64,000 nt of DNA from Thermodesulfobacteriota bacterium (GCA_040757175.1 JBFLXM010000080.1:213-64212), one strand, 5' to 3'. Positions 80 through 62,747 are shown, counted from the first letter of the stretch. A program made the numbers and translations. The notes: generated by a model from the sequence alone, not told the origin.

Positions 80-176
80 GAAGATTAAAGGAAGATTAAT
101 CGAAGATTAAGATGTTCTAATTTTTGAAAAAAACTTAAACATCCGGCGTCTTGCTTTGCGCCTTTGCGCCTTTGCG
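80..176. repeat. Two short-tandem-repeat blocks just downstream of the histidine-kinase stop: (GAAGATTAA+2 nt)x3 at 80-110 and (CTTTGCGC)x3 at 154-176
   Basis: Read directly: gaagattaa at 80, 91, 102 (period 11); ctttgcgc at 154, 162, 170 (period 8); non-coding. Confidence 0.8.
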
Positions 177-182
177 TGAAAC

Positions 183-1616
183 CTATCTTTTCGGCACCGG
201 AGGAATTGGGGCGGGGCAATCTGCGGGCAGGGAAACCGTGAAGGTGCTGCCCCGGCCCGGGGTGCTTTCCACTTCTATGCGGCCCCCATGGGCCACAGCC
301 AGGGATTGGGCGATGCTCAGCCCCAGACCGGCCCCGCCGCCGCTCTGGGTCCTGGCCCCGGCGGCCCGGTAAAACCGGTGGAAGATCTGCTTCTGCTCCT
401 CCTGGCTCAAACCCATGCCGGTGTCCGAGACCGCCAAATGGGCCGATTGGCCGTCACCGCGCAGGGAGAGGGTGACCCGGCCGCCCGGGGGGGTGTATTT
501 AATGGCGTTGTCGATCAGGTTCAACAGCAGCCTCTGGAAGTGCTCCCGGTCCCCCTGGATGACGGCAGGCTCCACCTTATCATAATCAAGGCTGACCCCG
601 TGGTTCTCCGCCAATAGCCGCATCTGCGCGGCCACCTCTTTAAGGAGTTCGTGCAACTCCAAGGGCTGTAAATCCAGCCGCAATACCCCCCGGTCCGCCC
701 GGGCCAGCAACAGGAGGCCGGCCACCAGGGCACTGATTCTATCGATCTCCTCCAGGCTGCTCAGGAGAACTTTCTTGTACTCCTCCGGACTGCGGGGGGA
801 GCGCAGGGCCACTTCCATTTCGCCCTTCAAGATGGTGAGGGGGGTTTGCAGTTCATGGGCCGCATCCGCGCTGAACCGGCGGATCTGGCCCAAGAAGTCA
901 TCCAGCCGGCCCAGCATGTCGTTCAGGGTCTGGGCCAGCCGGTCCAATTCATCCCCGGTGCCCGTCTCCTGGACCCGGCCCGCCAGATTCTCCCCGCTGA
1001 TGCGGCGGGCCGCCTGGGTCATCTCATCCACGGGTTTAAGGGCCCGCCGGGCCAAAACCCAGCCGCCCACGGACGCCAACAGCAACCCGAGAGGCAGAAG
1101 CGCGCCCATAATCAAGAGAAAGCGACGCCGGGTTTGGTACAAACTTTCCAGGGAGATGCCCACCTGCACCAGGTTGATCACCCGTCCGGCCTTAATCACC
1201 GGCATGGTCAGGACCCGGAAGGGGTAGGGGCCGGCGCCCTCCAGGGTCTCGAAGGTGGATACCCCCCGCAGGGCCTGCTCCAGGGTTTGGGGGCTGAGGG
1301 GGAGTTGGGCCGGGGAGCCGGGCCGGGATAAATCCCGCCGGCCCCGGGTGTCAAACAACTCCAGGGAAGGATTTAGCGGCGAGAAGCCGAAGAAGTGGCG
1401 AAAAAGCTCATCCACCCCCCGGGGCAAGAAGGCGCGGCCCTCGGCCCGGGCCTGCTCCGCCGACATCTTGGCCACCCCCTCCAAAGCCGCGTCCAAGTCG
1501 TGGGAGAGGCTGTAGGTTAAAAGACCATAGGCCGCCCCCCCCAAGACCAGGAGGATGACACAGAGAATGCCGGTGTACCAGCAAGTGAGGCGCGCCCCGA
1601 TGGACCTGATGCCCAT
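183..1616 (-). CDS. Heavy-metal-type (CusS/CopS-like) sensor histidine kinase
   Basis: 477-aa ORF; two TM segments plus HAMP; H-box 'AAHELQTPLT'; N-box 'LIDNAIKYT'; G-boxes 'DTGMGL' and 'GAGLGLSIA'; starts 4 nt after the response-regulator stop. Confidence 0.85.
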   Translation of the reverse strand: MGIRSIGARLTCWYTGILCVILLVLGGAAYGLLTYSLSHDLDAALEGVAKMSAEQARAEGRAFLPRGVDELFRHFFGFSPLNPSLELFDTRGRRDLSRPGSPAQLPLSPQTLEQALRGVSTFETLEGAGPYPFRVLTMPVIKAGRVINLVQVGISLESLYQTRRRFLLIMGALLPLGLLLASVGGWVLARRALKPVDEMTQAARRISGENLAGRVQETGTGDELDRLAQTLNDMLGRLDDFLGQIRRFSADAAHELQTPLTILKGEMEVALRSPRSPEEYKKVLLSSLEEIDRISALVAGLLLLARADRGVLRLDLQPLELHELLKEVAAQMRLLAENHGVSLDYDKVEPAVIQGDREHFQRLLLNLIDNAIKYTPPGGRVTLSLRGDGQSAHLAVSDTGMGLSQEEQKQIFHRFYRAAGARTQSGGGAGLGLSIAQSLAVAHGGRIEVESTPGRGSTFTVSLPADCPAPIPPVPKR

Positions 1617-1619
1617 GGG

Positions 1620-2291
1620 CTAGTCCCCTTGCAGCACGTAACCCACGCCCCGCACCGTCCGGAGCAATTTCCGCTCCCGGCCGGCGTCGATCTTCTTTCG
1701 CAGGTAGTTGACGTAAACGTCGATGATATTACTCATGGGATCGAAATCATAATCCCAGACATGTTCCCCGATCATGGTCCTGGTGAGCACCCGCCCGGGG
1801 TGGCGCATGAAGTAGTCCAGGAGGGCGAACTCCTTGGTGGACAGGTCTATTTTCTCGGGGCCCCTGGAGACCAGCCGCCGCGCGGGATCCAGGGTGAGGT
1901 CCGCCACCTGGAGCAGCGGCGACGCGGCCTCAACCCGCCTTCTCAACAAAGCCCTGATCCGGGCCAGGAGTTCCTGAAAGGAAAAGGGCTTGGTCAGGTA
2001 GTCGTCCGCGCCGGTATCCAAACCCAGCACCTTATCTTCGATGGCAGCCCGCACGGTGAGGAGCAGTACCGGGGTTTTACCCCGGTGTTGGCGGAACTCC
2101 CGGAGAACCCTGAGGCCGTCCATCTGCGGCAGGTTGAGGTCCAGGATGATCAGATCATAGACCCCATCCAGGGCCCGCAACAGGCCCTCCCGGCCGTCAA
2201 AGGCCACATCGATGGCATACCCCTCTTCCTCCAGCCCCTTCTTGATAAAGCCGGCCACTTTTTTCTCGTCTTCCACCACGAGAATGCGCAT
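1620..2291 (-). CDS. OmpR/CusR-family DNA-binding response regulator
   Basis: 223 aa; receiver 'MRILVVEDE...DLIILDLNLP'; winged-helix C-terminus 'LSTKEFALLDYF...RTVRGVGYVL'. Confidence 0.9.
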   Translation of the reverse strand: MRILVVEDEKKVAGFIKKGLEEEGYAIDVAFDGREGLLRALDGVYDLIILDLNLPQMDGLRVLREFRQHRGKTPVLLLTVRAAIEDKVLGLDTGADDYLTKPFSFQELLARIRALLRRRVEAASPLLQVADLTLDPARRLVSRGPEKIDLSTKEFALLDYFMRHPGRVLTRTMIGEHVWDYDFDPMSNIIDVYVNYLRKKIDAGRERKLLRTVRGVGYVLQGD

Positions 2292-2347
2292 CAGATGCGT
2301 CTCCCGGCAAGGGAACAGGAGATTAAGGGACGCCCCGGCAGTCCCGG

Positions 2348-4861
2348 CTAACGCCGCCTGCCCCCACCGCCACCGCCCCCACCGCCACCGCCCCGGCCGC
2401 CGCCGCCACCGCCCCGGGCGCCGCCACCACCCCCACCGGAGGGTCGGCTGACGCTGCCGCTGGGCCGGCCGCCGCCGCTGGGACGGGAGAAACTATGACT
2501 GGGCCGGGAGGCCGCGCTGGCCCGCTGGAAGTTCTGGGTGCGCATATCGCCTCGCTGCCGGGCCGCGAAGTCCCGATTCATTTGATTTCTGTTGAAGCTG
2601 GGCTGGGAGGCCGCGGCCGGGCGAGCCGAGGGGGTTGGCCGGGTGCTGGCCCCTGGCCGGGTTGCCGAAGCCGTCGCGGGTTGCCATTGGCCGCCCTGGC
2701 GCTGCTGGTAGTTGCCCTGGTGGTCCCGCTTGTAGACATTGCCGCTGCGGTCGGCCAGGACGTTATTCTTGCCCCCAGCGGGCCGCACTTGCGGTTGGGA
2801 TGGCCGGGGCTTGGCCGCCTGGGCCGGCCTGGTTGCGGGTCTGGATCCGCCCGCCTGGGAGGGTCCTCCCGGCCGGGCGCTGGGACGCTCTCCCGGGCCC
2901 TGACCGGGACGACTGGGACCGGCTCCGCTTCCCGGTCGGGCGCCAGGTTGGCCGGGCCGGGAAGCCAGCCGGTTCTCGTTCCCCGGGCGGTTATAGAGAT
3001 TGTTATGGGGACTGACCACCGGGTGGTGGATGGGCCGGCCGTTGGGACGATGATCCGGGCGCCGGTTGATCACGTTATTATGGATATTATTGATGTTGAC
3101 GTTGTTGTAGCCTCCGGCTCCCCACCAGCCGCCGCCGCCATAATAAGGCCCATGGCCCCACCAGGGGCTGGTGACCGCGCCCACGGCCATGCCCGCGGCA
3201 AAGCCCATCAGCCCGGGGACGAGCCAACTGGCCGGATTGTAATACGGGGTCTGATACCCCCAGGTCCCGGCGTAGGGGTTATAAGCCGCGGCGTAACCAT
3301 AAGTGGCCGGGGGCGGAATATAGGCCTCCGGGCTGGAATATCCCGCATAGCTGTAGCCGGTGCCATAGGCCACCGTGCCGTTGTCCACGTAGGAGCCGGT
3401 GTAGCCCGGGGTATAGCCCACGGTGACCGTGTCCTCCGTGGAATCATAGACCTTGACGTACTTGGCGTTGTAGCGGGGGTTGCTGGGGGGAATCTTGTTT
3501 ACTTCGGTGGGAGGATTCGCCGACACGGTCCAGGGGCCGTTGGGAGAATCGGCTTCGTACCATACCCCCTGGTCCACCGCGTAGTATTTGGTCCCTTCCT
3601 TGAAAACCGCGGCGCCGGTGTTTACCGCGTACTCCAGGTTGGTGTCGGCAATTTTCTCAAACTGGGGCTCCCCGGCGTATTCCACTTTGGTGGTGGCCTT
3701 TTTCCGGTCGATGACCGCGGTCTGGGGAATGGAGTTCTCCAGGACCGCCTCCTTGGCCTGGGGGGTGCCGGCGACGCTCACCAGGACCAAGCCCTTCACC
3801 GAGTTTTCCGGGATCTTGGCAAAGTCGGGGGGGAGTTGGGCCGGGGCCGCGTAGGTCCAGGGGCCCTCGGCCAGGGACTTGGTCTTGAACCAGCGGCCGG
3901 AAATAAGGGCATAATAATCCTGGGACGCGGTGTCCATGAAGATATTGCTCTCAGTATTGCTCAGGTACAGAAGGTTCGTGTCTTTAATGGGGGTGTATTG
4001 GGGCTCCCCAGCGGTGGCCAGAAGCTCCGCCGGCACGGTGCTGACGATGATCTCCGGCATCTTCCCCGCCTTGGCTTCCACTTTTTTCGGGGCGCCCTGG
4101 CCCGGGGCGGCTTTCTGAGCTGCCGCTTCCAAGGTTCTGATGGCCTCCGGGATCTGGTCCACGTCTCTCCAAGGACCCTGGAGATCCCCCGCGGCCAGCC
4201 AGGCTTCCCCACCCTTCAGGTAATAGGTCTTGGCCCCGGTATCATAAAGCATAAGGAAAGGCGTGTTCGCCACCCGCATGAGGGAGGATTTGGGCAGGGG
4301 GAGCAGCTTGGGGTCCCCGTCCAGGGGGACCAGCACTGCGGGATGGCTAACGAAGATGATCCGGGGAGGATCGTTGTTCAGACCCCGGTCTCCGGCCTGT
4401 TCCTTCTCCACCACCTCCAGGGCGGCCAGGAGCCGGTCCAGGGAGATGGGGAGGCTCAAATCCGCCATCTCGGTGTTCAGAAAGGTCTTCAATTTCTCCA
4501 CCTGCTCCGGCTTGGCGTCGGGAAACTTGGCCTCCGTGACCTTGACCTGGTCAATGGTGGCCATGCGGGTGTCCCGGTCGGTGAGGACCCGGCCCGAAAG
4601 CCAGACGGCCCCGAACAGCGGGGCCTTCATGCCCTTGGTCTGCACCGACACCGCGGCCCGGGCCGTGAGCTTGTCGTCCTTGAAGTCCTCCAATTGCGGC
4701 TGGTACATGACCACCGCGCCTTTGGGGTGTTGGAAACGCTTGGGCCATTTATCCTGGGCCGCCAGGACCGGCCGGCCCCCGGCCAGGACCAGGGCCAGAA
4801 CCGGCAGGATGGCCATTCCCATAAGCTTCCAGACCGAACGCTTTCTGTTCATGGCTGACAA
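2348..4861 (-). CDS. Secreted repeat protein of unknown function, with a Tyr/Gly-rich segment, one hydrophobic helix and a long Arg/Pro/Gly/Ser-rich tail ending in poly-Gly-RRR
   Basis: 837-aa ORF; signal peptide 'ILPVLALVLAGGRPVLA'; three YY..GxW..GPW..IP motif copies; tail '...SRPSGGGGGGARGGGGGGRGGGGGGGGGGGRRR'; same strand and 56 nt upstream of the RR gene. Confidence 0.75.
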   Translation of the reverse strand: MSAMNRKRSVWKLMGMAILPVLALVLAGGRPVLAAQDKWPKRFQHPKGAVVMYQPQLEDFKDDKLTARAAVSVQTKGMKAPLFGAVWLSGRVLTDRDTRMATIDQVKVTEAKFPDAKPEQVEKLKTFLNTEMADLSLPISLDRLLAALEVVEKEQAGDRGLNNDPPRIIFVSHPAVLVPLDGDPKLLPLPKSSLMRVANTPFLMLYDTGAKTYYLKGGEAWLAAGDLQGPWRDVDQIPEAIRTLEAAAQKAAPGQGAPKKVEAKAGKMPEIIVSTVPAELLATAGEPQYTPIKDTNLLYLSNTESNIFMDTASQDYYALISGRWFKTKSLAEGPWTYAAPAQLPPDFAKIPENSVKGLVLVSVAGTPQAKEAVLENSIPQTAVIDRKKATTKVEYAGEPQFEKIADTNLEYAVNTGAAVFKEGTKYYAVDQGVWYEADSPNGPWTVSANPPTEVNKIPPSNPRYNAKYVKVYDSTEDTVTVGYTPGYTGSYVDNGTVAYGTGYSYAGYSSPEAYIPPPATYGYAAAYNPYAGTWGYQTPYYNPASWLVPGLMGFAAGMAVGAVTSPWWGHGPYYGGGGWWGAGGYNNVNINNIHNNVINRRPDHRPNGRPIHHPVVSPHNNLYNRPGNENRLASRPGQPGARPGSGAGPSRPGQGPGERPSARPGGPSQAGGSRPATRPAQAAKPRPSQPQVRPAGGKNNVLADRSGNVYKRDHQGNYQQRQGGQWQPATASATRPGASTRPTPSARPAAASQPSFNRNQMNRDFAARQRGDMRTQNFQRASAASRPSHSFSRPSGGGRPSGSVSRPSGGGGGGARGGGGGGRGGGGGGGGGGGRRR

Positions 4862-11074: not shown

Positions 11075-11515
11075 TTATCTGAGGTATGCCTCATTTGCTT
11101 CCCACGCCTTCCTCAAATCCGCCATGGCCTTATCCAGATCGGCTTTCTGCTGGCCCCAGGCCTTCTCGGAGGCCTTTTGCAGGGCGGTTAATTGGTTCCC
11201 GGCCGCGGTTTTTTGCATCTGCAGTCTGTTCGCCGACTGGATAAGCAGGCGTTTCATCTGCGGCGACCCGGTGGTGGCTTTAACTCTTAAGTCAGCAATT
11301 TTTTGCTGGATTGCCTCCAATTCCTGGGCCGTATTTTTCTCGTAGGACTGCCTTTCCGCGGGGGTGAAGCTTTTTGCCGTCCCCGCCGGTTCGCCCTTTA
11401 CTTCCGGGCTCTGGGACCGGGTGGCCGGCGGCTTATCTTTTTGCTGCTGCGCACTCCCGTAACCCGGAGCGATTGCCAGCAGCACGGCCATGAACATTAT
11501 TCCAAGCCATTGCAT
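11075..11515 (-). CDS. Periplasmic helical protein with an LTXXQ-type motif (Spy/CpxP/ZraP-like)
   Basis: 146 aa; signal peptide 'MFMAVLLAIAPGYGSA'; 'LTALQ' and 'FTPAERQ' motifs; Lys/Gln/Ala-rich helical sequence. Confidence 0.55.
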   Translation of the reverse strand: MQWLGIMFMAVLLAIAPGYGSAQQQKDKPPATRSQSPEVKGEPAGTAKSFTPAERQSYEKNTAQELEAIQQKIADLRVKATTGSPQMKRLLIQSANRLQMQKTAAGNQLTALQKASEKAWGQQKADLDKAMADLRKAWEANEAYLR

Positions 11516-11719
11516 CCGCGACGTTCTCCTTAATTAGGCCGTGCCAGAAAATCTGACCCCTGCCTTGATTAACTCTCCATCATCCTATTCGACGGATCGC
11601 CTTAAAAAAGTTTACCATTTTTACCCATCTGGGATATCAAAGAAGACTCTATTCTGACCATATAAAAATATGGATATGTACTTAGTAGGTTAAAGCAAAA
11701 AGCCGAAAAAGCTATCGGT

Positions 11720-34310: not shown

Positions 34311-34313
34311 AGA

Positions 34314-38699: not shown

Positions 38700-38713
38700 G
38701 GCTGACCAAAGAA

Positions 38714-38847
38714 TTAACCACCAAGACACCAAGAACACCAAGATTCACCAAGATTCACCAAGGAATAATTATGAGCGTCCTGGCTTTCCAGGACGCTCAT
38801 AAAATTTTTCTTTGTGCTCCTTGGTGTCTTGGTGTCTTGGTGGTTAA
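38714..38847. repeat. Perfect 21-bp inverted arms built from CACCAAGA octamers
   Basis: ttaaccaccaagacaccaaga (38714-38734) is the exact reverse complement of tcttggtgtcttggtggttaa (38827-38847); the left block continues as (CACCAAGA-like)x5 to 38763. Confidence 0.9.
38769..38812. terminator. Rho-independent-type hairpin (15-bp perfect stem, CTTT loop) downstream of ddl
   Basis: ttatgagcgtcctgg-cttt-ccaggacgctcataa at 38769-38802; T-rich run aatttttcttt on the plus strand and ttattcc on the minus strand. Confidence 0.6.
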
Positions 38848-38874
38848 TGTATTTCCTCAACCCCTCTGGCGTTC

Positions 38875-40539: not shown

Positions 40540-41118
40540 TTAGTCTGCATCAGCATCAACTCCTATAATTAAAACCGGGATGTCAATATCAGCAACACCC
40601 CTTTTTTCCAAGTCCCAAATAAACTGTTCAAAATAAGATACTCCAGTTGACATTTCATCGGCAAATTGTTTTATAGGAACTATCTCAATACCAGTATCTA
40701 TAAAACTCATTTTGTTAAAAATGGTCATCTTTGCGCATACGTTATAAACCATAAAAGCATATTTGCCAAATTGCACTTCAATGCCTAACTTCTCTTTTAC
40801 AAAATCCATTTCTCTAAATGCACCTTTATTTAAATCTTTAGGTATATAATCTTCTGAGTAATAGTGAGTAGGATAATTGCATTTAACCTTTATATTTTTC
40901 CAGTTAAGCTCATAGAATAATTTCTTAAATGCATTATTTAAAGCTATTGGACTGAATAACATTCTCCCAGGCATGGTTTTCTCTTTACTTTTTTTGGTCT
41001 TGCATTTTTTGGACTTTACTAAACTAATTACTTTTTCCACTTCCTTCAAAAGATGCGAATATTTATTTTGAACAACTTCGGCCCCGTTGTTAAATGAATA
41101 CCTGCCAGCAATTATCAT
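40540..41118 (-). CDS. Type II restriction endonuclease, BglII/BstYI-like
   Basis: 192 aa, AT-rich; 'EMDFVKEKLGIEVQFGK' gives Asp-X8-Glu-Val-Gln, the spacing of the BglII catalytic residues; 4-nt overlap with the upstream methyltransferase. Confidence 0.6.
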   Translation of the reverse strand: MIIAGRYSFNNGAEVVQNKYSHLLKEVEKVISLVKSKKCKTKKSKEKTMPGRMLFSPIALNNAFKKLFYELNWKNIKVKCNYPTHYYSEDYIPKDLNKGAFREMDFVKEKLGIEVQFGKYAFMVYNVCAKMTIFNKMSFIDTGIEIVPIKQFADEMSTGVSYFEQFIWDLEKRGVADIDIPVLIIGVDADAD

Positions 41119-42068
41119 TTATTTTCCTTGGTTTTCCATTCTTCGGGAATTTGAGAAACCTTTTCCCGACCAGTTGGCATAAAAATTTCCTTACCTAATG
41201 GTCTAATTCTCAGCTTGCATTGATAGAAATCATTTATTCTTTGCTTGGCTATTTCAATATATTCTTTTTCCTTATCACACCCGACAACCTTGCGGCCATG
41301 CTTTAGTCCTGCTATTAGAGCGGAACCCACCCCGCAATAGGGATCAATCACATAATCGCTCTCATCAGTCAAGGCCAACACGCAGCGTTCAACAAGCTCA
41401 ACCGGGAATTGGCAAGGATGAATCGTTTTTTCGGGATGGTTTGATTTTACATTCGGAATGTTCCAAAATTCGTTATCCCAATCCCTTTTCAGGATTTCCC
41501 AGATATCGGAAGGGTTTTTTCCGAGAGGATTGCCAGAGGGTTTCCCAATATTCGGTCCTTTGTAATGTCTCTTGCCCGGATATTTCCCTGGTATCCGCAC
41601 AGCATCGAGGTTGAATTTATATTTATCCTCTTTAGTGAACCACAGGATTGTTTCATATCGGCCTGAAAAGCGTTTAGAGGCGTGCAAGCCGTGCCCAAAA
41701 TGCCAGATAATGCGATTTCTTAGGTGAAGACCTTTGTCCTTGAAAATTTTATAAAAATAGATGTCCAGAGGGTAGATTTCACCATTGTCCACATGATTTC
41801 CCACTTCCCAACAGATACTTCCGTCATCAGCCAAGATTCTCACAAGTTCATTAATCACGATTTCTTGTTCAATTAGGTATTCTTCAATACTTTTACGGGT
41901 TTCGTAACTTTTCCCGATATTGTAAGGAGGAGAGGTTATTATTAGGGTGGCCAAATTAGAGGGTAATTCCTTAAAAAATTCATAAGAGTCCCCACAGTGA
42001 AGAATTATATTGAACTGGGGATCGTATTCTTCTCTTATTGTTGGCTTAGAAAGCAGAGATAGCTGCAT
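41115..42068 (-). CDS. Beta-class N4-cytosine/N6-adenine DNA methyltransferase (cognate M subunit)
   Basis: 317 aa; motif IV 'ITSPPYNIG' precedes motif I 'VIDPYCGVGSA'; AT-rich. Confidence 0.85.
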   Translation of the reverse strand: MQLSLLSKPTIREEYDPQFNIILHCGDSYEFFKELPSNLATLIITSPPYNIGKSYETRKSIEEYLIEQEIVINELVRILADDGSICWEVGNHVDNGEIYPLDIYFYKIFKDKGLHLRNRIIWHFGHGLHASKRFSGRYETILWFTKEDKYKFNLDAVRIPGKYPGKRHYKGPNIGKPSGNPLGKNPSDIWEILKRDWDNEFWNIPNVKSNHPEKTIHPCQFPVELVERCVLALTDESDYVIDPYCGVGSALIAGLKHGRKVVGCDKEKEYIEIAKQRINDFYQCKLRIRPLGKEIFMPTGREKVSQIPEEWKTKENK

Positions 42069-44289: not shown

Positions 44290-44304
44290 ATCGACTCCAT
44301 CTAT

Positions 44305-44444
44305 CAGTAGCCAGTAGTCAGTGGTCAGTTTTCAGTTTTTGGTTTTTGGTTTTTGTGACACTGATCACTGATTACTGATCACTGATTACTGATTACTTAT
44401 CCCTAACCACTGGCCACTGACCACTGACCACTGACCACTGGCCC
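44305..44444. repeat. Array of 20 consecutive heptads in unbroken 7-nt register
   Basis: CAGTAGC CAGTAGT CAGTGGT CAGTTTT CAGTTTT TGGTTTT TGGTTTT TGTGACA CTGATCA CTGATTA CTGATCA CTGATTA CTGATTA CTTATCC CTAACCA CTGGCCA CTGACCA CTGACCA CTGACCA CTGGCCC; ends 1 nt before the stop of the upstream gene. Confidence 0.9.
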
Positions 44445-45491: not shown

Positions 45492-45551
45492 AATTTTTTA
45501 TTATCACCTTTTCGAATTCAGAGGTCATTTTACCAGGAAAAAAGAAAAAAA

Positions 45552-45634
45552 GGGGAAGAGGGGAAAAGGGGAAAAGGGGAAATGCCAAAAATTAGCATTC
45601 TTCTTCCCCTTTTCCCCTTTTAACCTTTTCCCCC
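45552..45634. repeat. Imperfect hairpin whose arms are (GGGGAAAA)n / (TTTTCCCC)n octamer repeats
   Basis: ggggaagaggggaaaaggggaaaaggggaaatgc - caaaaatta - gcattcttcttccccttttccccttttaaccttttccccc. Confidence 0.85.
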
Positions 45635-45661
45635 ATTATTTATAGAGATCCAATTATCGAT

Positions 45662-46606
45662 TTAAGCTCCCAATTTCTCACCTACTAACTTCTCCCAGGT
45701 GGCGATGACCGGCCCCCAAAACTCCGGCTCCCCTTCCCATTGGGCTTGGGTGATGAGGAAATTGCCGTGGCCGGTGGCCACCAGGAGTCCTTCGGCGGGC
45801 AGGGAGGCCGTGATTTGGCCGGGCTCTCCCTGCTCCCCGGCCCCGGCGGCCAACACCCGGCCCCACCAGATGAAGAGCTTGCGGCCCTGGAGCATGGTGA
45901 AGGCCCCGGGGTAGGGATGGGTCACGGCCCGCACCAGATTATATATCTCCTGGGATGATTTTTGCCAGTTAATCAAGCCGTCCTGGGGGCCCCGCCCGCC
46001 GAAATATGAAGCCTGACCCTGATCCTGGGCAATCCTGGGGGCCGTCCCCTCCCGTAAGGCCGGATAAATTTCCGCCATCAAGGCCCCGGCCGCCGCGGTC
46101 ATGCGTGCGAAGAGAGTGAGAGCGCTGTCCTCCGGGGTGATGGGCACCCGCTTCTGGGCCACCATCTCCCCTTTGTCGGGTTTTTCCACCATATAATGGA
46201 GGGTCACCCCGGTTTCCGTCTCCCCGTGGACTAAAACCCAGTTCACCGGACAGCGGCCCCGGTAGCGGGGCAGCAGGCTGCCGTGGAGGTTCAGCGCGCC
46301 CAGGGGGGGCAGGTCCAACAGGGGCTTTTTCAGCATGTGCCGGTAATAGCAGGAAAACAAAAAATCCGGTTTAAGCTTCGCCATGGCCGCCACAAAGGCC
46401 GGATCATTGGGGTCCTGGGGCTGATACACCGGCAAATAATTTTTGAAAGCCAGGTCCCGCACGGAGGAGAACCAGATATTCTCCCGGGGGTCGTCGGCAT
46501 GGGTGACCACGGCCGCGATCTCGTCCCCCAAATTACGGCAATGCTCCATCAGGGCTTCGAGACAGACGCAGCCGATATTGTGGTAACCCATGAAGATGAG
46601 GCGCAT
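45662..46606 (-). CDS. arnA: UDP-4-amino-4-deoxy-L-arabinose formyltransferase (homolog of the ArnA N-terminal domain)
   Basis: Start set at '[12 protein letters not shown]' (ATG 46606). '[32 protein letters not shown]' matches E. coli ArnA '[32 protein letters not shown]'. The ORF-track N-extension lies in repeats. Confidence 0.9.
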   Translation of the reverse strand: [314 protein letters not shown]

Positions 46607-46612: not shown

Positions 46613-46705
46613 CGGTTTTCGGTTTTCGGTTTTCGGTTTCTGATTCTGATTCTGGTTCCCAAGCTGTGCTTGGGAACCCCTTTGGCCGCAAAGCTGAGCT
46701 TTGCG
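46613..46705. repeat. Mosaic element: (CGGTTTT)x4, (TGATTC)x2, then two REP-like hairpins
   Basis: Heptads from 46613; ggttcccaagctgtgcttgggaacc at 46654-46678; cgcaaagctgagctttgcg at 46687-46705. Confidence 0.85.
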
Positions 46706-46745: not shown

Positions 46746-47126
46746 TTATTGGAGAAACGCTTCGGTCTTCTTAATGAATTGTTCTGCTCTTTCCTGCAAA
46801 TCCGTCACTTCAGATTCGGATATGCCGCTCAGATATTCATAATCGCTGACCTGGCGCTTTTCAAAGGCCCGATGTAGAGACTGATGCATTTCTTTTGGCA
46901 ATAGTCCGGATTTGATAAAGTGTTCGCCAAATGCGGCGATTGCCGCCCGATGGCTCGAAAAAGTCTTTCCTTGACTGAGCAACAGGGCCTCGGCGCCATA
47001 AAACATGGCATAATAAAGGCGTGAGACGGCAGAGTCAAAATCGGCGTTTTGCCGCAAAAGTTCGGCAGATGCCAGATAACGGCGAGCCTTGGCCAGCATC
47101 TGTTTAATTTCTTCCGCCACCGTCAA
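46746..47126 (-). CDS. HEPN-domain protein (putative toxin of a HEPN/MNT pair)
   Basis: 126 aa; 'FDSAVSRLYYAMFYGAEALL...SHRAAIAAFGEHF...RQVSDYE'; 4-nt overlap with the upstream MNT gene. Confidence 0.8.
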   Translation of the reverse strand: MTVAEEIKQMLAKARRYLASAELLRQNADFDSAVSRLYYAMFYGAEALLLSQGKTFSSHRAAIAAFGEHFIKSGLLPKEMHQSLHRAFEKRQVSDYEYLSGISESEVTDLQERAEQFIKKTEAFLQ

Positions 47127-47458
47127 AGCCGTACCCCTTCCCGCCGCACGTTTTCAAAAAGGGGGCTCTTTCTCACCTCAAGCCATTCCTCCGGCACAGG
47201 ATAGGTAGCGATGAGCACGTTGTGCTCCAGGCAGATGTCAGCCACCCCATCCCCGATCCGGTCAATTTCTTGGCTTGGTTTGACCTCTCCCTCCAAGGCA
47301 ATGAGCACATCCACATCCGAGTCCGCATGAAAATCTCCCCGGGCAAAGGAACCGTACAGATAAACGCCGCGCAGTCGATCCCCATAAATCTCAGCCAAAT
47401 AATCCTGCAATTCTTTTAAGGCCTGTTGGACGGCTCCGGGAATTTGGCGGCCGGACAT
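47123..47458 (-). CDS. Minimal nucleotidyltransferase (MNT) domain protein (putative antitoxin)
   Basis: 111 aa; 'GVYLYGSFARGDFHADSDVDVLIAL' (GS-X9-11-DxD) signature. Confidence 0.85.
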   Translation of the reverse strand: MSGRQIPGAVQQALKELQDYLAEIYGDRLRGVYLYGSFARGDFHADSDVDVLIALEGEVKPSQEIDRIGDGVADICLEHNVLIATYPVPEEWLEVRKSPLFENVRREGVRL

Positions 47459-47505: not shown

Positions 47506-47564
47506 CGTAGGGGAGGACCTTGTGTTCGCCCCGAATGATGGGCGAACACAAGGTTCGCCCTACA
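47506..47564. repeat. REP-like 59-bp palindromic element, copy 2
   Basis: cgtaggggaggaccttgtgttcgccccgaatgatgggcgaacacaaggttcgccctacaa; compare 31655-31713. Confidence 0.8.
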
Positions 47565-47655: not shown

Positions 47656-48657
47656 CTACGACTCCTGGCCCCTGGCCCCTGGCCCCTGGCCTTCTCCCCC
47701 CAACTCCTGCCGGATGACAAACCGCGGCCTGCCCCGCACCTCCCGGTAGATGCGGCCCACGTACTCCCCCACCAGGGCCAGGGCAAAGGTGTTCAGCCCC
47801 ACGAAGACAAAGAGGATGGCAAAAAGGGTAAAGACCCCCTCCACTTCCGGGCCCACGAAGAGCCGGCGCAGAAAGAGAAAAGCCCCGAAGCCCAGGCCCA
47901 ACAGGGCGATGCAGATGCCCATGACTCCCACCATGTGGATGGGAAAGTTGGAGAACCCGGTCATGAAGTCCACATTGAGGCGCAGCAATTTGATGAGGCT
48001 GTATTTCGACTGGCCCCGCTCCCTCTCCGCATGGCCCACCGGGATTTCCGCCACCCGCCGGGAAAAGAGATTGGCCAGGGCCGGAATGAAGCTGGAGGTC
48101 TCATGGCACTGGTTGATGCTGTCCACCACCTCCCGGCGGTAGGCCCGGAGCATGCAGCCGTAGTCCCGGAGCTTGACCCCGGTGACCCGGGACATTACCT
48201 GGTTGATGAGGAAAGAGGGAAATTTGCGGAATAAGGAGTCTTGCCGGTTTTCCCGCCAGCCTCCCACGGTATCAAAGCCTTCCTCGATCTTGGCCACCAG
48301 CCTGGGGATCTCTTCCGGGGGGTTTTGCAGGTCCGCGTCCAGGGTGACCAGCACCTGGCCCCGGGCGGCCTGGAAACCCGCGAAAATGGCCTGGTGCTGG
48401 CCGAAGTTGCGGTGAAACTGGAGGGCCCGGATGACCTGGGGATGCTGCCGGTGGAGTTGGCTCAACAGATCCCAGGAGCGGTCAGAAGAGCCGTCATCCA
48501 CAAAGATGATCTCGTAGGGACGGTTCATGCCCCCGAGGGTGCGGACCAGGCGCTCCCCCAGTTCCTCCAGGTTTTCATCTTCGTTGTAAACGGGAATAAC
48601 GACTGATATGTAAGGTTGGGGGGACGCGAGGTTTAAGGACATGACCTGGTTAGCCAT
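47656..48657 (-). CDS. arnC: Undecaprenyl-phosphate 4-deoxy-4-formamido-L-arabinose transferase (GT2)
   Basis: 333 aa; 'ISVVIPVYNE' and 'LDADLQNPPEEIPRLVAKIEEGFD' are nearly identical to E. coli ArnC; the last ~12 codons are encoded by (CTGGCCC)x4 heptads. Confidence 0.9.
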   Translation of the reverse strand: MANQVMSLNLASPQPYISVVIPVYNEDENLEELGERLVRTLGGMNRPYEIIFVDDGSSDRSWDLLSQLHRQHPQVIRALQFHRNFGQHQAIFAGFQAARGQVLVTLDADLQNPPEEIPRLVAKIEEGFDTVGGWRENRQDSLFRKFPSFLINQVMSRVTGVKLRDYGCMLRAYRREVVDSINQCHETSSFIPALANLFSRRVAEIPVGHAERERGQSKYSLIKLLRLNVDFMTGFSNFPIHMVGVMGICIALLGLGFGAFLFLRRLFVGPEVEGVFTLFAILFVFVGLNTFALALVGEYVGRIYREVRGRPRFVIRQELGGEGQGPGARGQES

Positions 48658-49576
48658 AATTTTTACTCTCGGGGAGACTTATAAGAAACAGAGGTTCGAA
48701 TAGATATCCGGGAATATCAATAGCAGAATTTTCGGCAATGCGCCGACGGCATTCTTCAACGAATTGCTCGTGAATTTCAAATCCCGCCGCCTTGCGTCCC
48801 AGGCGACGGGCAACAACAATGGTAGTCCCGCCGCCGGCAAATGGGTCTATCACTATTCCACCCACAGGGCAGGCGATCTTAATAAAGAATTCGGCTAATC
48901 CCTCCGGCATTGCCGCGGTGTGGGCAACGCCTCGATACTGGTTGTAGGTCTGAGGAACAATCACCACATTCCCTGGATCAGCTCCTCCTCGTAGATACGT
49001 CTTCGTGCGGTCACGGCCAAAACCAGCCTCTGTATTTCGTCTGCCCAGTCTGTCCAATTTTCTCCTGGCGATCTCGGCGAAGTCCGCTTTATAAGGAACT
49101 CTGACAGCATCCAAGTCAAAATATGGTTTCAGGCCACGGGCAAAGTGATAAACATATTCAAAACTATCCTTGGTCCGTGGGCCAAACTTGCCTGGAACTG
49201 CATTTGATTTCGCCCAGATGTAAGTCTCAATCCAACGCCAACCCATCCGCTGGAGGGAAAGAACTAGCTCATAAACATATGGGTGCCTCTGCCCTTTTAG
49301 TGGACCCTGTTTTGCCACCCGATTCTTGATATTAAGGATGAGGCTCCCACTCTGACTCGCAGCGTTAAACATCTCTTGGGCAAATGGTAGGAACCACTCA
49401 ACATAATGGTCTGGGTGTATCCGGCTATATGCCCGGGCATCGGCATAAGGAGGACTCATGAAGAAAAGGTCGATGCTGCCTTGGGGAAGGAGTGGCAACA
49501 AATCCAAAGCATCGCCAAGTGTTATCCCATCATCGAGAAACTGAGCTAATGCTTGAGTGCCACCTCTGATCTGCAC
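48650..49576 (-). CDS. Orphan beta-class N4-cytosine/N6-adenine DNA methyltransferase
   Basis: Motif IV 'FFMSPPYADA' precedes motif I 'VIDPFAGGGTT'. Start proposed at GTG 49576 (GGAG upstream), because the ORF-track N-terminus runs into RNase P RNA. The stop overlaps the arnC ATG (ATGGCTAA). Confidence 0.75.
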   Translation of the reverse strand: MQIRGGTQALAQFLDDGITLGDALDLLPLLPQGSIDLFFMSPPYADARAYSRIHPDHYVEWFLPFAQEMFNAASQSGSLILNIKNRVAKQGPLKGQRHPYVYELVLSLQRMGWRWIETYIWAKSNAVPGKFGPRTKDSFEYVYHFARGLKPYFDLDAVRVPYKADFAEIARRKLDRLGRRNTEAGFGRDRTKTYLRGGADPGNVVIVPQTYNQYRGVAHTAAMPEGLAEFFIKIACPVGGIVIDPFAGGGTTIVVARRLGRKAAGFEIHEQFVEECRRRIAENSAIDIPGYLFEPLFLISLPESKNYG

Positions 49577-49652
49577 GCTGCATCTCCACAAGCTGCACGC
49601 ATGTAAGTTTATGGGGGACTGCCGCTTGTAGTGGCCGGTGGACCCAAAGAAG

Positions 49653-50021
49653 CCGCGGAGCAGGCCGTAAGCCGAGTTCTGTACCGGAAAAGCTCCGGCG
49701 ATGATCATTCCTCTGGGACCCCGGTTGCCCGGGGCCTCTAGCGGCCTACCCGGGAGCTTTGGGCGGGCCACCCTCAAGCGCTCCCCTATTTGGCCTTGCT
49801 CCGGGTGGGGTTTTCCAAGCCGGCAATGTCGCCACTGCCGCTGGTGAGCTCTTACCTCACCTTTTCACCCTTACCGTGGACGTACCACGGCGGTCTGGTC
49901 TCTGAGGCACTTTCCCTGGGGTTGCCCCCGCTGGGCGTTACCCAGCACCCTGCCCTGTGGAGCTCGGACTTTCCTCCGGCCGCCCGGAAAGCAGCCGGCG
50001 ATCATCTGGCCTACTCCGCGG
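49653..50021 (-). ncRNA. rnpB: RNase P RNA, bacterial type A
   Basis: Reverse complement contains 'GGAGGAAAGTCCGAGCTCCACAGGGCAGGGTGCTGGGTAACGCCCAG', 'GGTAAGGGTGAAAAGGTGAGGTAAGAGCTCACC', 'CCACCCGGAGCAAGGCCAAATAGGGG' and 'ACAGAACTCGGCTTA'. P1 pairs CCGCGGAGTAGGCC with GGCCTGCTCCGCGG. Ends are good to about 5 nt. Confidence 0.85.
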
Positions 50022-54694: not shown

Positions 54695-56446
54695 CTAATG
54701 TTTAAGGTCCTGCAGTTGCTGTTCGATTGCCAATTTCTGCACCTGCAAAGCCAATAGCTCCTCGCCTCCGGGAACGGCGGCGGCCTTTGCCAATTCCTCC
54801 TTGATTTGCGCCAGGGCCTTCTTAAGCCGCTGCATCTGGCGGGCCCGGCGCCATTCTTCCGCCAAAACCTCCGTGGACGGTTCCCCCTTTCCTAAAGTCA
54901 GGGCGCAGATCTGCTGCCGCAGATGCTCCTCTTCCACCCTTTGAATCAACAGGCTGTGGTCCAGCGCGCCGTCTTCCTTAAGACTTCTGATGACCAACTC
55001 CAGCAAATTCTTCAATTCCTGGTCCTGGAACTCCTGGGCCCACTCCTCCAATTCTTCCAGGGGCACGATCCCGGGGTGGTGGAGCACCCATTTGAGCAGC
55101 CTTTCCTCCGGATTGTTGAGCAGGCAACGGCCCGGGGCCAGGCGCTGGGCCGCCACCGGGGCTTGGGAGGAAAGACTCCGGCGCAGCGCAGATTCCTCCA
55201 CCCCCAGGCGCTCCCCGGTGAACCGCAGCCACAAGCCCTGCTCCACCGGGTCGCTCAGGGCCTGAAAATAAGGGCGCAGCTCCGCGGCGATGCGCACCCG
55301 GCCTTCCACCTCCAAGCCGTGGGCGGCCACCAGTTCCTCCACCAGAAAGGCGAACCAGGGTTGGGCCTTTTCCCAGGGGGACTGGAAGAGCTCCACCCCG
55401 TGTTGAAACGCGTAAGTGTCCGGGTCCAGGCCCGGGGGCAGCGGCAGCACCCGCACCGCCAGCCCTTCCGCGGCAAAAATAGGAAAAGCCCGGCGCATGG
55501 CCCGGGCTCCCGCAGCATCCCCGTCAAAGACCAATACTGCTTTGGCTACCTGGTTTTTTAGGACCCGCACCTGCTCTTTGGTGAGAGCCGTGCCCAGGGT
55601 GGCCACCACGTTGGCGATGCCGTGCACCCTGAGGGCCAACAGGTCCATGTAGCCTTCCACCACCAGCGCCACGCCGGTGAGCCGCAGGGCCTCCTGGGCC
55701 TGAGGCAGGCCGTAGAGGGTGCGGCCTTTGGAATACAAGGGACTCTCCGGGGAATTGAGGTACTTGGGCTCACCAACGCCGATGATCCGGCCCCCGAACG
55801 CGATCACCCGTTCCTGCCGGTCCAGGATGGGGAACATGAGCCGGTCCCGGAAGCGGTCGTAATACCCCCCCTGCTGCCGGGGCAGGAGCAGGCCCACCTC
55901 CTGGGCCGCGTCCAGGGAAATCCCTTTATTCTGCAAATGCTTCCGCAGCCCGTCCCATTCCTCGGGGGCATAGCCGATATGAAAGTCCCGGACTACCTCT
56001 TTGGTCAGACCCCGCTTTTGGATATACTCCCGGGCCTTCCCGCCCTTGGGCCCGGCCAGGCAGGATTGATAGAAGGCCGCGGCCTCCTTGTTGATCTCCT
56101 GCATCAGTTGCCGCTTCTTGGCCTGGCGGCCCCCTTCAGGGCCCAGGTCCTTCATGGTGATGGTGATGCCGTAGCGCCGGGCCAGCTCCTGCACCGCCTC
56201 CGGGAAAGAAAGGCGCTGGTGCTGCATCAAGAAGGAAAAAACGTTCCCCCCCGCGCCGCAGCCGAAGCAATGAAAGATGCCCTTGTCCGGGGACACCGTG
56301 AAGGAAGGCGCGGTGTCCGGGTGGAAGGGGCAGAGGCCCAGAAGGTTCTTGCCTCTCTGGGTCAACTGGACGTACTGGCCCACCACCTCTTCGATGCGGG
56401 CCGCGTCTTTGATCTCCAGGAGCTTGTCTTCGGGGATAAAAGCCAT
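54695..56446 (-). CDS. dnaG: DNA primase
   Basis: 583 aa; zinc finger '[30 protein letters not shown]'; TOPRIM '[10 protein letters not shown]' and 'VFDGDAAG'. Confidence 0.95.
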
Positions 56447-56453: not shown

Positions 56454-56790
56454 CGGTTTTCTGTTTTCGGTTTTCGGTTAAAAGATTTCCAGGTAGGGCG
56501 GGCCTCTGTGCCCGCCATCCTTATGCCGGTGACCCGGGCTTTTCAGCTCCGGCGGCAGTGGGGCGGGCCGCGGCGCCTGCCATCATGGCGGCAGGGTGTC
56601 TTCTCCATCTATTCTCTATTTCGGAGAAGAGCGCCCCCCACATTAATTTGGTGTTAACCGCACATTAGTTTGATGTTTCTTCTCGTTCCCAAGTTGTACT
56701 TGGGAACGTCTTTTGTCTTGCCAAGCTGTGCTTGGCCTGCGGCGGGACGGGCCTCTGCGACCGCCGCCCTCATGGTGGGCCATGCCCACC
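56454..56790. repeat. Repeat-dense 350-bp spacer: (CGGTTTT-type heptads)x4 plus at least six GC-rich REP-like hairpins
   Basis: Heptads 56454-56481; ggcgggcctctgtgcccgcc 56497-56516; cgttcccaagttgtacttgggaacg 56684-56708; gccaagctgtgcttggc 56720-56736; gcggcgg...ccgccgc 56739-56767; ggtgggccatgcccacc 56774-56790. Confidence 0.85.
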
Positions 56791-56798
56791 CTACACTC

Positions 56799-61891: not shown

Positions 61892-61922
61892 AGAGAATTT
61901 TTTTTAGGTATTTCCCCGCCTA

Positions 61923-61930: not shown

Positions 61931-62144
61931 GCTATTTAAGAGGCGGGAATCTGCCTGCTTTCTCACATCAAGGATGGGTGAGGAAGTCCTTTAAGTACCC
62001 GGAATCCCTTGTAATTAATGGATTTCCCGGGAGATGAGGGCTTGCCTTCCCTCTGTATTTTTTGGGTCGAGGAACCTTGCCTGAGGCAAGGGAAGGCAGG
62101 TTGACTTAACGGAATCAAGTGAATAATTTAAATCAAGGGCATTT

Positions 62145-62444
62145 ATGAAAATCACCGACATTCAAGGAACTGGCGTCAGCCAGTTACAGGGCGAACAGAC
62201 GGCGACGGTAGGGTCGCGGACAGGCAAAACTTCTACAGATAACCTGAGCGCCGGGACTGATAACATATTTGTGTCCCAGGAAGCCCGTCTGATGCAAAAG
62301 GCGGCAGAGGCCGTGGCCCAGACTCCGGAGGTGCGGCAAGACAAAGTGGACGCTTTGCAGCAGTCCGTGAATCAGGGCACCTATTCTGCCGATACACAAA
62401 AAGTGGCCAACAGTATGATCGCCAATATGCTCATGGAGCGGTAA
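62145..62444 (+). CDS. flgM: Anti-sigma-28 factor FlgM
   Basis: 99 aa; C-terminal 'VRQDKVDALQQSVNQGTYSADTQKVANSMIANML' typical of FlgM. Confidence 0.8.
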   Translation: MKITDIQGTGVSQLQGEQTATVGSRTGKTSTDNLSAGTDNIFVSQEARLMQKAAEAVAQTPEVRQDKVDALQQSVNQGTYSADTQKVANSMIANMLMER

Positions 62445-62477
62445 GACTCTAATCGAAAGAAAAAGAGGGTATTGGGG

Positions 62478-62517
62478 GAAGGGGCGCCCCGGGGGGGGGC
62501 GCCCCTTCATTTTTTTT
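62478..62517 (+). terminator. Rho-independent terminator of flgM
   Basis: gaaggggcgcccc-gggggg-ggggcgccccttc followed by attttttttc. Confidence 0.85.
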
Positions 62518-62712
62518 CGGAGGAATTCCTCCTGGGCCTTTAGTCCACCCGTAAATCATGAAAAATCGTAGGCGGGCGTCCTCGCCCGCCTCGTTAATCC
62601 GCACAAGCTGGAAAGCCTGTGCCACCACTTCTTAGATTATTTCCGAACGGTTCTTTGTGGGCGTGCTTGGCCCACCCGTAACTTATTCAAAGCTCTCATG
62701 ATTCACAGTCTT

Positions 62713-62747
62713 AACTTTGAATTTTGAACCTTGAACTTTGAACTTTG
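62713..62747. repeat. (CTTTGAAC-type octamers)x4 downstream of the cysteine desulfurase gene
   Basis: aactttgaattttgaaccttgaactttgaactttg; same word family as 27369, 34314 and 34431. Confidence 0.85.

Follow-up and report, generated by a model that had tools for sequence, protein, structure and literature searches.

Tandem heptanucleotide repeats, the short tandemly repeated repetitive (STRR) sequences, have reportedly been known in bacteria since 1990, when Mazel et al. are said to have described cyanobacterial families of tandem heptamers in non-coding DNA. Here we describe arrays of this kind in a 64,000-nt stretch of Thermodesulfobacteriota bacterium (GCA_040757175.1, JBFLXM010000080.1:213-64212; hereafter the window), where they lie at gene ends and about half of them are arms of long hairpins. 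The wider class of long simple-sequence repeats with 5- to 11-nt units (LSSR5-11) was surveyed by Mrazek, Guo and Shah (2007), and the available summaries of that survey give heptamers as the most abundant unit (PMC4679880, PMC4692102); heptamer repeats themselves are stated to lack a detailed literature (PMC4692102). In a homology search, the window's Mpl protein (34456-35874, minus strand) was 100% identical to a protein of a metagenome-assembled genome labelled Thermodesulfobacteriota; close homologues are labelled Desulfobaccales or Deltaproteobacteria, and the host is an uncultured sulfate-reducer-type bacterium of Thermodesulfobacteriota.

Several described systems come near to what we find. 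In Geobacter metallireducens, paired sites are built from GTTGCTYN x4 (24 pairs), TCTCCGTS[Y] x3 (21 pairs) and MTYCTGA x5 (8 pairs) (Aklujkar et al. 2009, PMC2700814). The heptamer repeats GGGAATC of Xanthomonas and GGGGA(T/C)T of Nostoc are intergenic and mostly lie 0-50 bp from an open reading frame (ORF) (Rehm et al. 2015, PMC4692102). TAACTGA repeats occur in marine Beggiatoaceae, Cyanobacteria and Bacteroidetes as 2-6 sense copies just upstream of start codons that have no canonical Shine-Dalgarno sequence, and the orange Guaymas filament genome (BOGUAY) carries 169 direct sets and one inverted (MacGregor 2015, PMC4679880).

We detected arrays by running Tandem Repeats Finder on the window and then read the sequences directly, taking as a strong block any array with a period of 6-11, at least 2.8 copies and at least 85% matches. 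The blocks listed in an earlier set of claims about this DNA (hereafter the original prediction) are real, with near-perfect tandem arrays at all sites named. The arrays that the program delimited include 34313-34344, 34431-34464, 38719-38762, 38820-38842, 45548-45582 and 45604-45633, and at 46.6 kb 46613-46639 (period 7) and 46638-46658 (period 6). We curated a gene list with the help of ORF tables, family hits and synteny. By this list, intergenic DNA makes up 12.9% of the window and contains 15 of the 18 strong blocks (p = 2.5e-11); two of the 3 genic arrays are in-frame hexamers and the third lies at 47664-47691. Two hundred dinucleotide shuffles of the window spacers yielded 0.01 arrays per set on average against the 15 observed. 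Within spacers, the mean normalised distance from an array to the nearest edge is 0.33 compared to 0.5 if placement were uniform (P = 0.009), so that the predicted concentration at gene boundaries is non-random. The enrichment of period 6-11 arrays at coding-sequence boundaries, proposed as a check, was found in the window and in 238 other loci (239 in total), which is the sample that our enrichment tests cover. Outside the window, genes are crude longest-ORF calls with exact stop codons and inexact starts. Convergent spacers are bounded by exact stops on both sides, and of the 63 arrays that they contain across the 239 loci, 29 are found at most 9 nt away from a stop (mean normalised distance 0.35, P < 1e-5). 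The arrays even encroach on genes and overlap ORF ends: mpl stops on a variant repeat unit, and which unit serves as its stop codon differs between the window and the syntenic locus L002. At least 10 different array words occur within the 64 kb, distributed as follows.

79-110: (GGAAGATTAAA)x2.9, period 11, unpaired, in the spacer downstream of a histidine-kinase gene; folding z -1.2/-2.6, not beyond shuffles.
154-176: (CTTTGCGC)x2.9, period 8, 6 nt from the stop codon of 183-1616 (minus strand).
27367-27393: (GTTCAAR)x3.9, 5' arm of a 224-nt composite hairpin between membrane fusion protein (MFP) and resistance-nodulation-division (RND) permease genes; pairs with 27559-27590, z -11/-13.5.
27403-27559: core of the composite hairpin, with two GTTCCCAAG-N5-CTTGGGAAC hairpins, one GGCCAAGC-TCA-GCTTGGCC hairpin and one GC-rich hairpin.
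27559-27590: (AACTTGG)x4.6, 3' arm; read as its complement, GTTCCAA, each unit has one mismatch to the 5' arm.
28650-28672, minus strand: (GGAAAAC)x3.3, sense, unpaired, 24 nt upstream of the MFP start codon.
28705-28724, minus strand: (ATCAGCT)x2.9, sense, unpaired, 3 nt past the stop codon of the TolC-like gene; kept in L001.
34313-34345: (GTTCAAR)x4.6, 5' arm, beginning 2 nt past the stop codon of 33327-34310 (plus strand).
34346-34429: 84-nt loop or core, inverted relative to the flanking genes when compared to L002 and L003.
34430-34464: (YTTGAAC)x4.9, 3' arm, overlapping the final codons and TAA stop of mpl, 34456-35874 (minus strand).
38713-38762: (CACCAAGAN)x4.8, 5' arm, period 9-10; arms of 22 nt 100% complementary, z -10.4/-12.1.
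38769-38802: 15-bp terminator-like central hairpin, whose orientation varies among relatives.
38820-38848: (CTTGGTGT)x2.9, 3' arm, period 8, partner of 38713-38762.
44304-44440: a spacer made almost only of heptamers, (TCAGTRG)3, (TCAGTTT)2, (TTGGTTT)2, (YACTGAT)6 and (CACTGRC)5; the outer arrays pair, z -6.9/-7.9.
45545-45582: (AAAAGGGG)x4.4, 5' arm, period 8.
45604-45640: (TTCCCCTT)x3.8, 3' arm, period 8; the entire hairpin is missing from the orthologous spacer of L002.
46613-46658, minus strand: leader arrays (CAGAAT)x3.5 then (AAAACCG)x3.9, sense, with 6 nt between them and the ATG of the formyltransferase gene 45662-46606 (minus strand); predicted single-stranded.
47664-47691, minus strand: (CCTGGCC)x4, within the 3'-terminal codons of ORF 47656-48657 (minus strand).
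56454-56479, minus strand: (AAAACCG)x3.7, sense, ending 7 nt before the ATG of 54695-56446 (minus strand).
62713-62747: (AACTTTG)x5, solitary, 36 nt past the stop codon of 62784-63923 (minus strand); no partner arm found.

The main structural point, overlooked in the original prediction, is that blocks come in reverse-complementary pairs. Five spacers hold two mutually reverse-complementary blocks that form the outer stems of long hairpins, with folding z-scores against shuffles of -4.5 to -13.5 on both strands. Besides the composite element at 27.3 kb, the paired arms are 34313-34345/34430-34462 (33 nt, 88% complementary), 38713-38734/38827-38848 (22 nt, 100%), 44305-44336/44409-44440 (32 nt, 81%) and 45545-45581/45604-45640 (37 nt, 84%). 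By contrast with these hairpin arms, which take in about half of the arrays, a second class is solitary; in three spacers (0.1, 28.6 and 46.6 kb) unpaired arrays are predicted to be single-stranded (z -0.2 to -2.6). Over all loci, pairs of the same word are inverted in 53 cases and direct in 11.

The pairing changes how several earlier observations are to be read. Recurrence of GTTCAAAG, CGGTTTT and GTTTTCC is as claimed, but the supposed recurrence of CTGGCCC fails at 44438, where a single copy ends the CACTGRC array. Part of the apparent recurrence arises because the two arms of one hairpin carry the same word: the GTTCAAAG sites at 27369/27559 and at 34314/34431 are each the arms of a single hairpin and thus not the unlinked, independent sites they were taken for. 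Most arrays have the 7- to 8-nt period that had been given for all, and a few have period 6, 9-10 or 11. The block at 47665 was listed as a spacer block and in fact sits inside the last ~11 codons of ORF 47656-48657 (minus strand). Blocks clearly bracket REP-like (repetitive extragenic palindromic) or terminator-like hairpins, as had been proposed, only at 27.3 kb and 38.7 kb; in the other spacers they bracket plain loops or are unpaired. The statement that classical REP/BIME (bacterial interspersed mosaic element) hairpins, which are present too, leave the periodic blocks unaccounted for holds.

We next compared the window to 14 close relatives (syntenic loci L001-L014, 73-88% Mpl identity, 144.5 kb) and, as a control set, to 68 distant mpl loci (at most 49% Mpl identity, 814.5 kb). 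Block density is 0.28 per kb in the window (18 blocks in 64 kb) and 0.27 per kb in the close relatives (39 blocks), compared to 0.016 per kb in the distant loci (13 blocks, 5 of them in L032). Identical words at identical spacers in relatives with 73-88% Mpl identity contradict the description of the arrays as genome-specific, and the vocabulary of the clade includes GTTCAAR, AACCGAA, GGAAAAC, CACCAAGA, TTTCCCCT and CAGTGAG. A metagenome-assembled genome labelled Desulfobacca acetoxidans (L201) carries the same words. Cross-phylum loci were chosen by one word, GTTCAARGTTCAARGTTCAAR, in a scan of one genome per GTDB species. This word, or (GTTCAAR)3, was found at at least 120 loci, against ~2 expected at uniform base composition by our own calculation, and the matches listed include Acidobacteriota, Bacteroidota, Verrucomicrobiota, Desulfobacterota, Cyanobacteria, Planctomycetota, Nitrospirota, Chloroflexota and others. 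Among the matches listed there are a further 145 arrays of other words, and 226 of 271 arrays have period 7. Since the same arrays occur in many phyla, the grammar belongs to some lineages and reaches beyond this genome; most likely, judging by these distributions, it is a syndrome of some lineages and a clade trait of Desulfobaccales-like Thermodesulfobacteriota. L032, from an unrelated lineage (47% Mpl identity), has a similar syndrome that includes the inverted pairs GCAGTAG/CTACTGC and AGTGATG/TCACGCA.

Orthologous arrays have changed in place. In the TolC-to-MFP spacer, (GGAAAAC)x3 of the window corresponds to ~13 units, mostly AGAAAAC, in L001, with the flanks and the second array (ATCAGCN) kept; upstream of the formyltransferase gene, (CAGAAT)3(AAAACCG)4 in the window corresponds to (CAGAAAA)4 in L002. 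Units drift in concert, with one substitution in every unit (CCGAAAA versus CAGAAAA, and likewise GGAAAAC versus AGAAAAC). The convergent spacer between mpl and a thiI-like gene shows a graded series: a plain hairpin in L005, L007 and L008, made of (GTTCAAR)2-5, a loop of ~15-30 nt and (YTTGAAC)2-5; a 70-90-nt core within the loop in the window, L002 and L003; one arm swapped for (AAAAACC)n in L006; and both arms swapped for (ATCAGCN)n in L001. Even between L005 and L013, which share 93% Mpl identity, the left arm of this hairpin has 2 versus 4 units. The original prediction preferred a dispersed family or templating to replication slippage, but this is contradicted by orthologous arrays that differ in unit number (3 versus 13) and by a single substitution carried through every unit (CCGAAAA versus CAGAAAA); change in unit number together with concerted substitution at orthologous arrays therefore indicates in-place slippage with concerted evolution. 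In the proposed check for presence or absence of whole blocks, the (AAAAGGGG) hairpin is missing from L002 and the MFP-to-RND arrays from L001, while other arrays persist at orthologous spacers. In the right heptamer arm of L013 (~11490-11620) we also noted a MITE-like (miniature inverted-repeat transposable element) insertion of ~130 nt with terminal inverted repeats TGGCACTGTAAAAAGTC.../...GACTTTTTACCAGGCCA and AACTTTGA on either side.

The loops of two hairpins have been inverted. In the mpl spacer, the plus strand of the window core aligns to the plus strand of L002 at 27 of 34 positions, with mpl on opposite strands; the partial core of L003 has, by eye, the L002 orientation, and at least one inversion of the loop is needed. 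The core of the hairpin between the genes for Ddl and a beta-lactamase occurs in two orientations, state A (window, L005) and state B (L002, L004, L006), which on a neighbour-joining tree of Mpl require at least two inversions. Because the orientation of this terminator-like core differs among relatives, its U-rich tail changes strand: the tail of the 38.7-kb hairpin lies on the sense strand in L002, L004 and L006 and on the antisense strand in the window and L005. Identical arrays in independent assemblies rule out an assembly artefact; for this question the arms were assumed to be shorter than typical sequencing reads.

With moderate confidence, we favour the explanation that the blocks are long simple-sequence repeats of the heptanucleotide type (LSSR5-11, STRR kind) that arise by slippage, with template switching between arms. 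Replication slippage, with 7-nt units favoured in certain lineages, would create and resize the arrays. Once an array lies in one arm of a palindrome, such as a REP-like or terminator stem, intrastrand template switching, an established mechanism of quasipalindrome correction, would copy it to the other arm, would overwrite the flanking spacer up to sequence under selection, and would occasionally flip the loop. We propose that arms lie flush with stop and start codons because overwriting halts at selected sequence. Loop inversions and arm symmetry suggest that template switching keeps the arms symmetric. Paired arrays may then serve as long stem-loops at 3' ends and between cistrons, and unpaired A-rich arrays as unstructured leaders; any such function is probably secondary to the mutational origin.

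Several points weigh against slippage with template switching. Slippage lengthens arrays but by itself gives no placement at gene ends, and the overwriting step that would do so was deduced from loop inversions and arm symmetry. The near-absolute head-to-head polarity of two related words described below (GTTCAAN 46:1, GTTTCAA 6:1) lies outside the predictions of a purely mutational model. Selection or repeated homogenisation may be required to keep GTTCAAR in the mpl spacer of relatives with 73-88% Mpl identity. The word-specific placement of (AAAACCG)n suggests that this class, at least, has a function: sense (AAAACCG)n ends 5-17 nt before start codons that usually have no Shine-Dalgarno sequence, both in the window (46613 and 56454) and in L009, L014, L103 and L201. 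Finally, enrichment rests on the window and 238 other loci.

The polarity concerns GTTCAAN. Among nearest-neighbour GTTCAAN arms at most 250 nt apart, 46 pairs (37 loci, many phyla) are arranged as 5'-(GTTCAAN)n...(NTTGAAC)n-3' and 1 pair is reversed; for the related word GTTTCAA the ratio is 6:1. Because arm polarity is fixed, the GTTCAAN words behave as a coherent family, as the original prediction implied. The arrangement is identical on both strands, and the direction of transcription or replication is therefore no explanation. Dispersed hairpins of the form xCAAGC-N3-5-GCTTGx occur at 27403-27484, 46655-46704 and 56685-56737, every copy being intergenic, and their outer stems (GTTCCCAAG, GGCCAAGC, GCAAAGC) vary yet stay complementary. 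They have the same polarity as the GTTCAAN arms, and the stems GTTCCCAAG and GGCCAAGC resemble the array words GTTCAAG, GTTCCAAG and CACCAAGA; the arrays may be expanded stems of such palindromes and may have inherited their polarity from them. Two more general rules for the arms failed. Among distinct words in cellular loci, 21 of 24 have a purine-rich 5' arm, but viral contigs do not follow this rule; a rule that joins an open 5' arm to a 3' arm containing a stop (12 versus 7 distinct words, p = 0.36) is valid in the GTTCAA superfamily only.

A word scan of viral contigs put the preference for GTTCAAA into proportion. (GTTCAAA)3 was found at 43 loci compared to 21 for the reversed word (AAACTTG)3, and the permuted controls (GTATCAA)3 and (GACTTAA)3 gave 7 loci and 1 locus, respectively; (AAAACCG)3 occurred at 18 loci and its reversed form (GCCAAAA)3 at 15. 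In composition-matched controls, arrays of many A/T-run heptamers are common. The preference is thus modest, about twofold over the reversed word, and GTTCAAA is favoured and not unique. Four IMG/VR contigs (L206, L233, L213 and L220) carry GTTCAAN hairpins with a common conserved loop, AAANCCTCTCTTTCCCC, at least 3 per contig, and are a true dispersed hairpin family there. In an Acidobacteriota metagenome-assembled genome (L132, 2300-2790), four ~100-nt tandem modules each consist of (GTTCAAA)3-4 and a conserved 70-nt segment, with an inverted (AACTTTG)n array at the end of the series; the adjacent 378-aa gene has arrays at both ends.

To ask whether the hairpins act as RNA, we compared strands, arms and gene contexts. 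Of 21 codirectional hairpins, 11 fold more stably as the sense strand and 10 as the antisense strand, with a mean difference of 0.0 kcal/mol. No compensatory covariation of A/G unit variants between arms was found (hairpin register 19/29 versus parallel order 23/29). Hairpins fall in codirectional, convergent and divergent spacers in the ratio 22:6:6, against a background of 85:30:32. We considered that each convergent gene might supply its own sense 3' array, but convergent hairpins (6/34) are equal to background; GTTCAAR blocks directly past sense stop codons are in moderate excess only, based on crude gene calls. At gathering score, the window passes only the RNase P RNA and tRNA models of Rfam 15, and permissive thresholds gave the spacers sub-threshold matches only, nearly all to generic long-hairpin (miRNA precursor) models. 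We thus found no sign of selection on RNA structure. The strand symmetry, lack of covariation and background spacer proportions therefore favour a DNA-level mutational origin over selected RNA.

Of the alternatives, a mobile-element family (MITE, REPIN or foldback), in which heptamers are terminal inverted repeats moved by a transposase or RAYT-like (REP-associated tyrosine transposase) enzyme encoded elsewhere and slippage only modulates arm length, seems unlikely to us. It could accommodate the 46:1 GTTCAAN polarity at 37 loci in many phyla, the absence of the (AAAAGGGG) hairpin from L002 and of the MFP-to-RND arrays from L001, the exchange of both mpl-spacer arms for ATCAGCN in L001, the conserved hairpin loop repeated at least 3 times per contig in some viral contigs, and the likeness of array words to xCAAGC-N3-5-GCTTGx stems (e.g., GTTCCAAG versus GTTCCCAAG). 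However, the copies have no target-site duplications or common flanks, which also goes against the dispersed element family of the original prediction; within the clade, loops are unlike between sites, at least 10 different words occur in 64 kb, orthologous arrays evolve in place, many arrays are unpaired, and arrays of control words are common too in a large collection. Family searches of the window found no transposase, RAYT, integrase or recombinase and no reverse transcriptase or other templating enzyme, which leaves the templated process that had been suggested without an encoded agent within the window. That the arrays are programmed invertible switches (invertons) flipping a directional core such as a terminator is highly improbable. 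The core has been inverted repeatedly at two independent spacers and relatives differ in which strand carries the U-rich tail of the 38.7-kb hairpin, but the window has no recombinase, both core orientations score as terminator-like in our scan, recombinase synapsis generally needs more than the 60-90 bp of these loops, and the inversion events are far apart in evolution. Being so widely separated, the inversions are possibly rare by-products of template switching.

Two further readings give the arrays a selected role, and we are doubtful of both. DNA sites for a protein that contacts one short unit per subunit (nucleoid-associated protein, global regulator or ribbon-helix-helix protein), with head-to-head arrays nucleating the complex, would suit the architecture well: the ribbon-helix-helix proteins omega repressor and MetJ bind 7-bp heptads and 8-bp metboxes, respectively, and 3-5 contiguous 7-8-bp units, direct and head-to-head, are what the window presents. 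Fixed and strand-symmetric polarity, a word kept at orthologous sites and the lack of strand asymmetry at the RNA level fit as well, and this is what Aklujkar et al. proposed for the analogous G. metallireducens pairs (PMC2700814). The unrelated words are, however, too many for one or a few proteins and drift among relatives, copy number ranges from 3 to 13, many arrays lie between convergent stop codons with nothing obvious to regulate, and no candidate binding protein is encoded adjacent. For selected RNA elements (bidirectional terminators, 3'-end stabilisers or RNase III sites, with unpaired A-rich arrays as translational leaders), the very stable predicted hairpins, the canonical terminator-like hairpin at the centre of the 38.7-kb element and sense (AAAACCG)n 5-17 nt before start codons, parallel to TAACTGA in Beggiatoaceae (PMC4679880), have to be set against equal stability of sense and antisense, no covariation, no enrichment of convergent or 3' contexts and no matching Rfam family. 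Most hairpins moreover have no U-tract, and a U-tract would call for the opposite polarity of GTTTCAA.

Slippage with template switching thus remains our preferred explanation, and with it the arrays can be placed among described repeats. As judged by their sequences, they belong to the known LSSR class, with a Geobacter-like architecture and words that match no described family. In the literature searched, no (GTTCAAA)2 strings appear in this context. The arrays share with LSSR5-11 repeats head-to-tail iteration of 5-11-nt units beyond chance (15 intergenic blocks versus 0.01 in shuffles), copy-number variation between relatives (3 versus ~13 units; 2 versus 4 units for L005/L013), and heptamer predominance and lineage restriction (226/271 among the matches listed; 0.27-0.28 versus ~0.016 per kb). 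According to its summaries, the survey likewise reports intergenic repeats scattered over phyla, with strong lineage differences, variable copy number and presumed expansion by slippage; those summaries do not mention inverted pairing, flush gene-end placement, loop inversion or word polarity, and the survey predates the genomes of this lineage. The Geobacter sites share opposite-strand pairs of 3-5 tandem 7-9-nt units at variable distance, an intergenic location and several word classes, in a former deltaproteobacterium. This likeness is one of architecture only. The words are unlike, with none of GTTGCTYN, TCTCCGTS[Y] or MTYCTGA arrayed in the window, although MTYCTGA is one base (6/7) from CYACTGA, the complement of the window's TCAGTRG. 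The Geobacter sites were read as IHF/HU or regulator sites without a test, and no comparison of copy number, inversion or polarity accompanied them.

The remaining systems are more distant. Some Xanthomonas repeats form inverted pairs capable of a stem-loop, and their positions are kept between species while length and sequence vary, as here. The Xanthomonas and Nostoc repeats are, however, G-rich and quadruplex-capable, with one dominant word per genome, whereas the words of the window are numerous, for the most part richer in A/T than the genome, and in no case prone to G-quadruplexes. The (AAAACCG)n leaders have a placement equivalent to that of TAACTGA, and both are distributed over phyla; the window has no TAACTGA arrays, about half of its arrays are inverted pairs, and (TTACTGA/TCACTGA)n at 44359-44400 is one base from TAACTGA but mid-spacer. 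Like STRR sequences, the arrays draw on a limited vocabulary common to related strains. Those of PCC 7120, such as ccactgactactgac (PMC2408588), resemble the window CACTGAC array, but belong to another phylum, and CCCCAGT, TTGGTCA and CAACAGT are not window words; only TGACCAC is close (6/7 to TGACCAA). REP/BIME elements and REPINs are also intergenic, dispersed, hairpin-forming and often located between codirectional or convergent genes. They differ in being single imperfect palindromes of ~20-40 nt with fixed sequence, compared to variable-copy 7-nt tandem arrays, and with no RAYT in the window the blocks do not fit a REP/REPIN-RAYT system. GC-rich REP-like palindromes are nevertheless present at 31656-31712, 47508-47562, 56493-56516, 62568-62590 and 27500-27559, several of them after GTAG (e.g., GTAGGGGCGAATCTTGTATTCGCCC), and GTAG before the palindrome is a hallmark of RAYT-associated REPs. 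Among the relatives, two spacers do have the inverton layout of inverted repeats around a segment found in both orientations. Integron attC sites, which are imperfect palindromes 5'-RYYYAAC...GTTRRRY-3' past cassette genes and go with an IntI integrase, were rejected: the order here is reversed (5'-GTTCAAR...YTTGAAC-3'), the arms are tandem arrays, and the window has no integrase. CRISPR was rejected as well, the units being contiguous and 6-11 nt long compared to 23-50-nt repeats with unique spacers.

Four points appear to go beyond earlier descriptions: the comparative record of concerted evolution in place, loop inversion that recurs, the absence of an RNA-level signal and the strict GTTCAAN polarity. 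The window and its relatives form a clean comparative series, the same spacers being available across 73-93% protein identity, and this series argues for a DNA-level, self-symmetrising process. If a trans-acting factor lies behind the polarity, the heptamer repeat class would have its first mechanistic handle. A bolder idea, to which we give little credence, is that GTTCAAN heptad hairpins are a cross-phylum class of DNA element with a trans-acting partner, spread by horizontal transfer and working as flip-flop modules that tune read-through. If so, the candidate partner would be a heptad-binding protein or a hairpin-specific transposase or recombinase, and the decades-old question of what STRR/LSSR sequences are for would gain a concrete, testable handle. 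On the practical side, the arrays lengthen or shorten ORF ends and mislead start-codon calls, and they may be hotspots of small inversions in metagenome-assembled genomes.

Other features of the window were noted in passing. Positions 1-30100 are rich in metal and drug efflux genes, with a CusS-like sensor kinase, a multicopper oxidase, CusA/CzcA-type and multidrug RND pumps, and their MFP and TolC-like partners, one MFP having YHS domains. Within the same region, 2348-4861 (minus strand) is an 837-aa ORF with no Pfam or NCBIfam match, whose coding sequence has GC-rich repeats (CCACCG and related) at 2352-2438; this call is uncertain, as a 787-aa ORF overlaps it on the opposite strand. Three AT-rich islets (~41% GC in a 58% GC window) at 35871-37535, 40540-42068 and 46746-47458, all on the minus strand, encode an AAA_15/OLD-like ATPase, a BglII-like endonuclease with an N6/N4 methylase, and a HEPN-nucleotidyltransferase pair. 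Since they are missing from L001 and L002, they look like defence or toxin-antitoxin islets inserted in repeat-rich spacers. The longest-ORF call for a DNA methylase, 48650-49777 (minus strand), overlaps the RNase P RNA gene at 49653-50017 (minus strand) by ~125 nt, and the true start of the methylase must therefore be further downstream.

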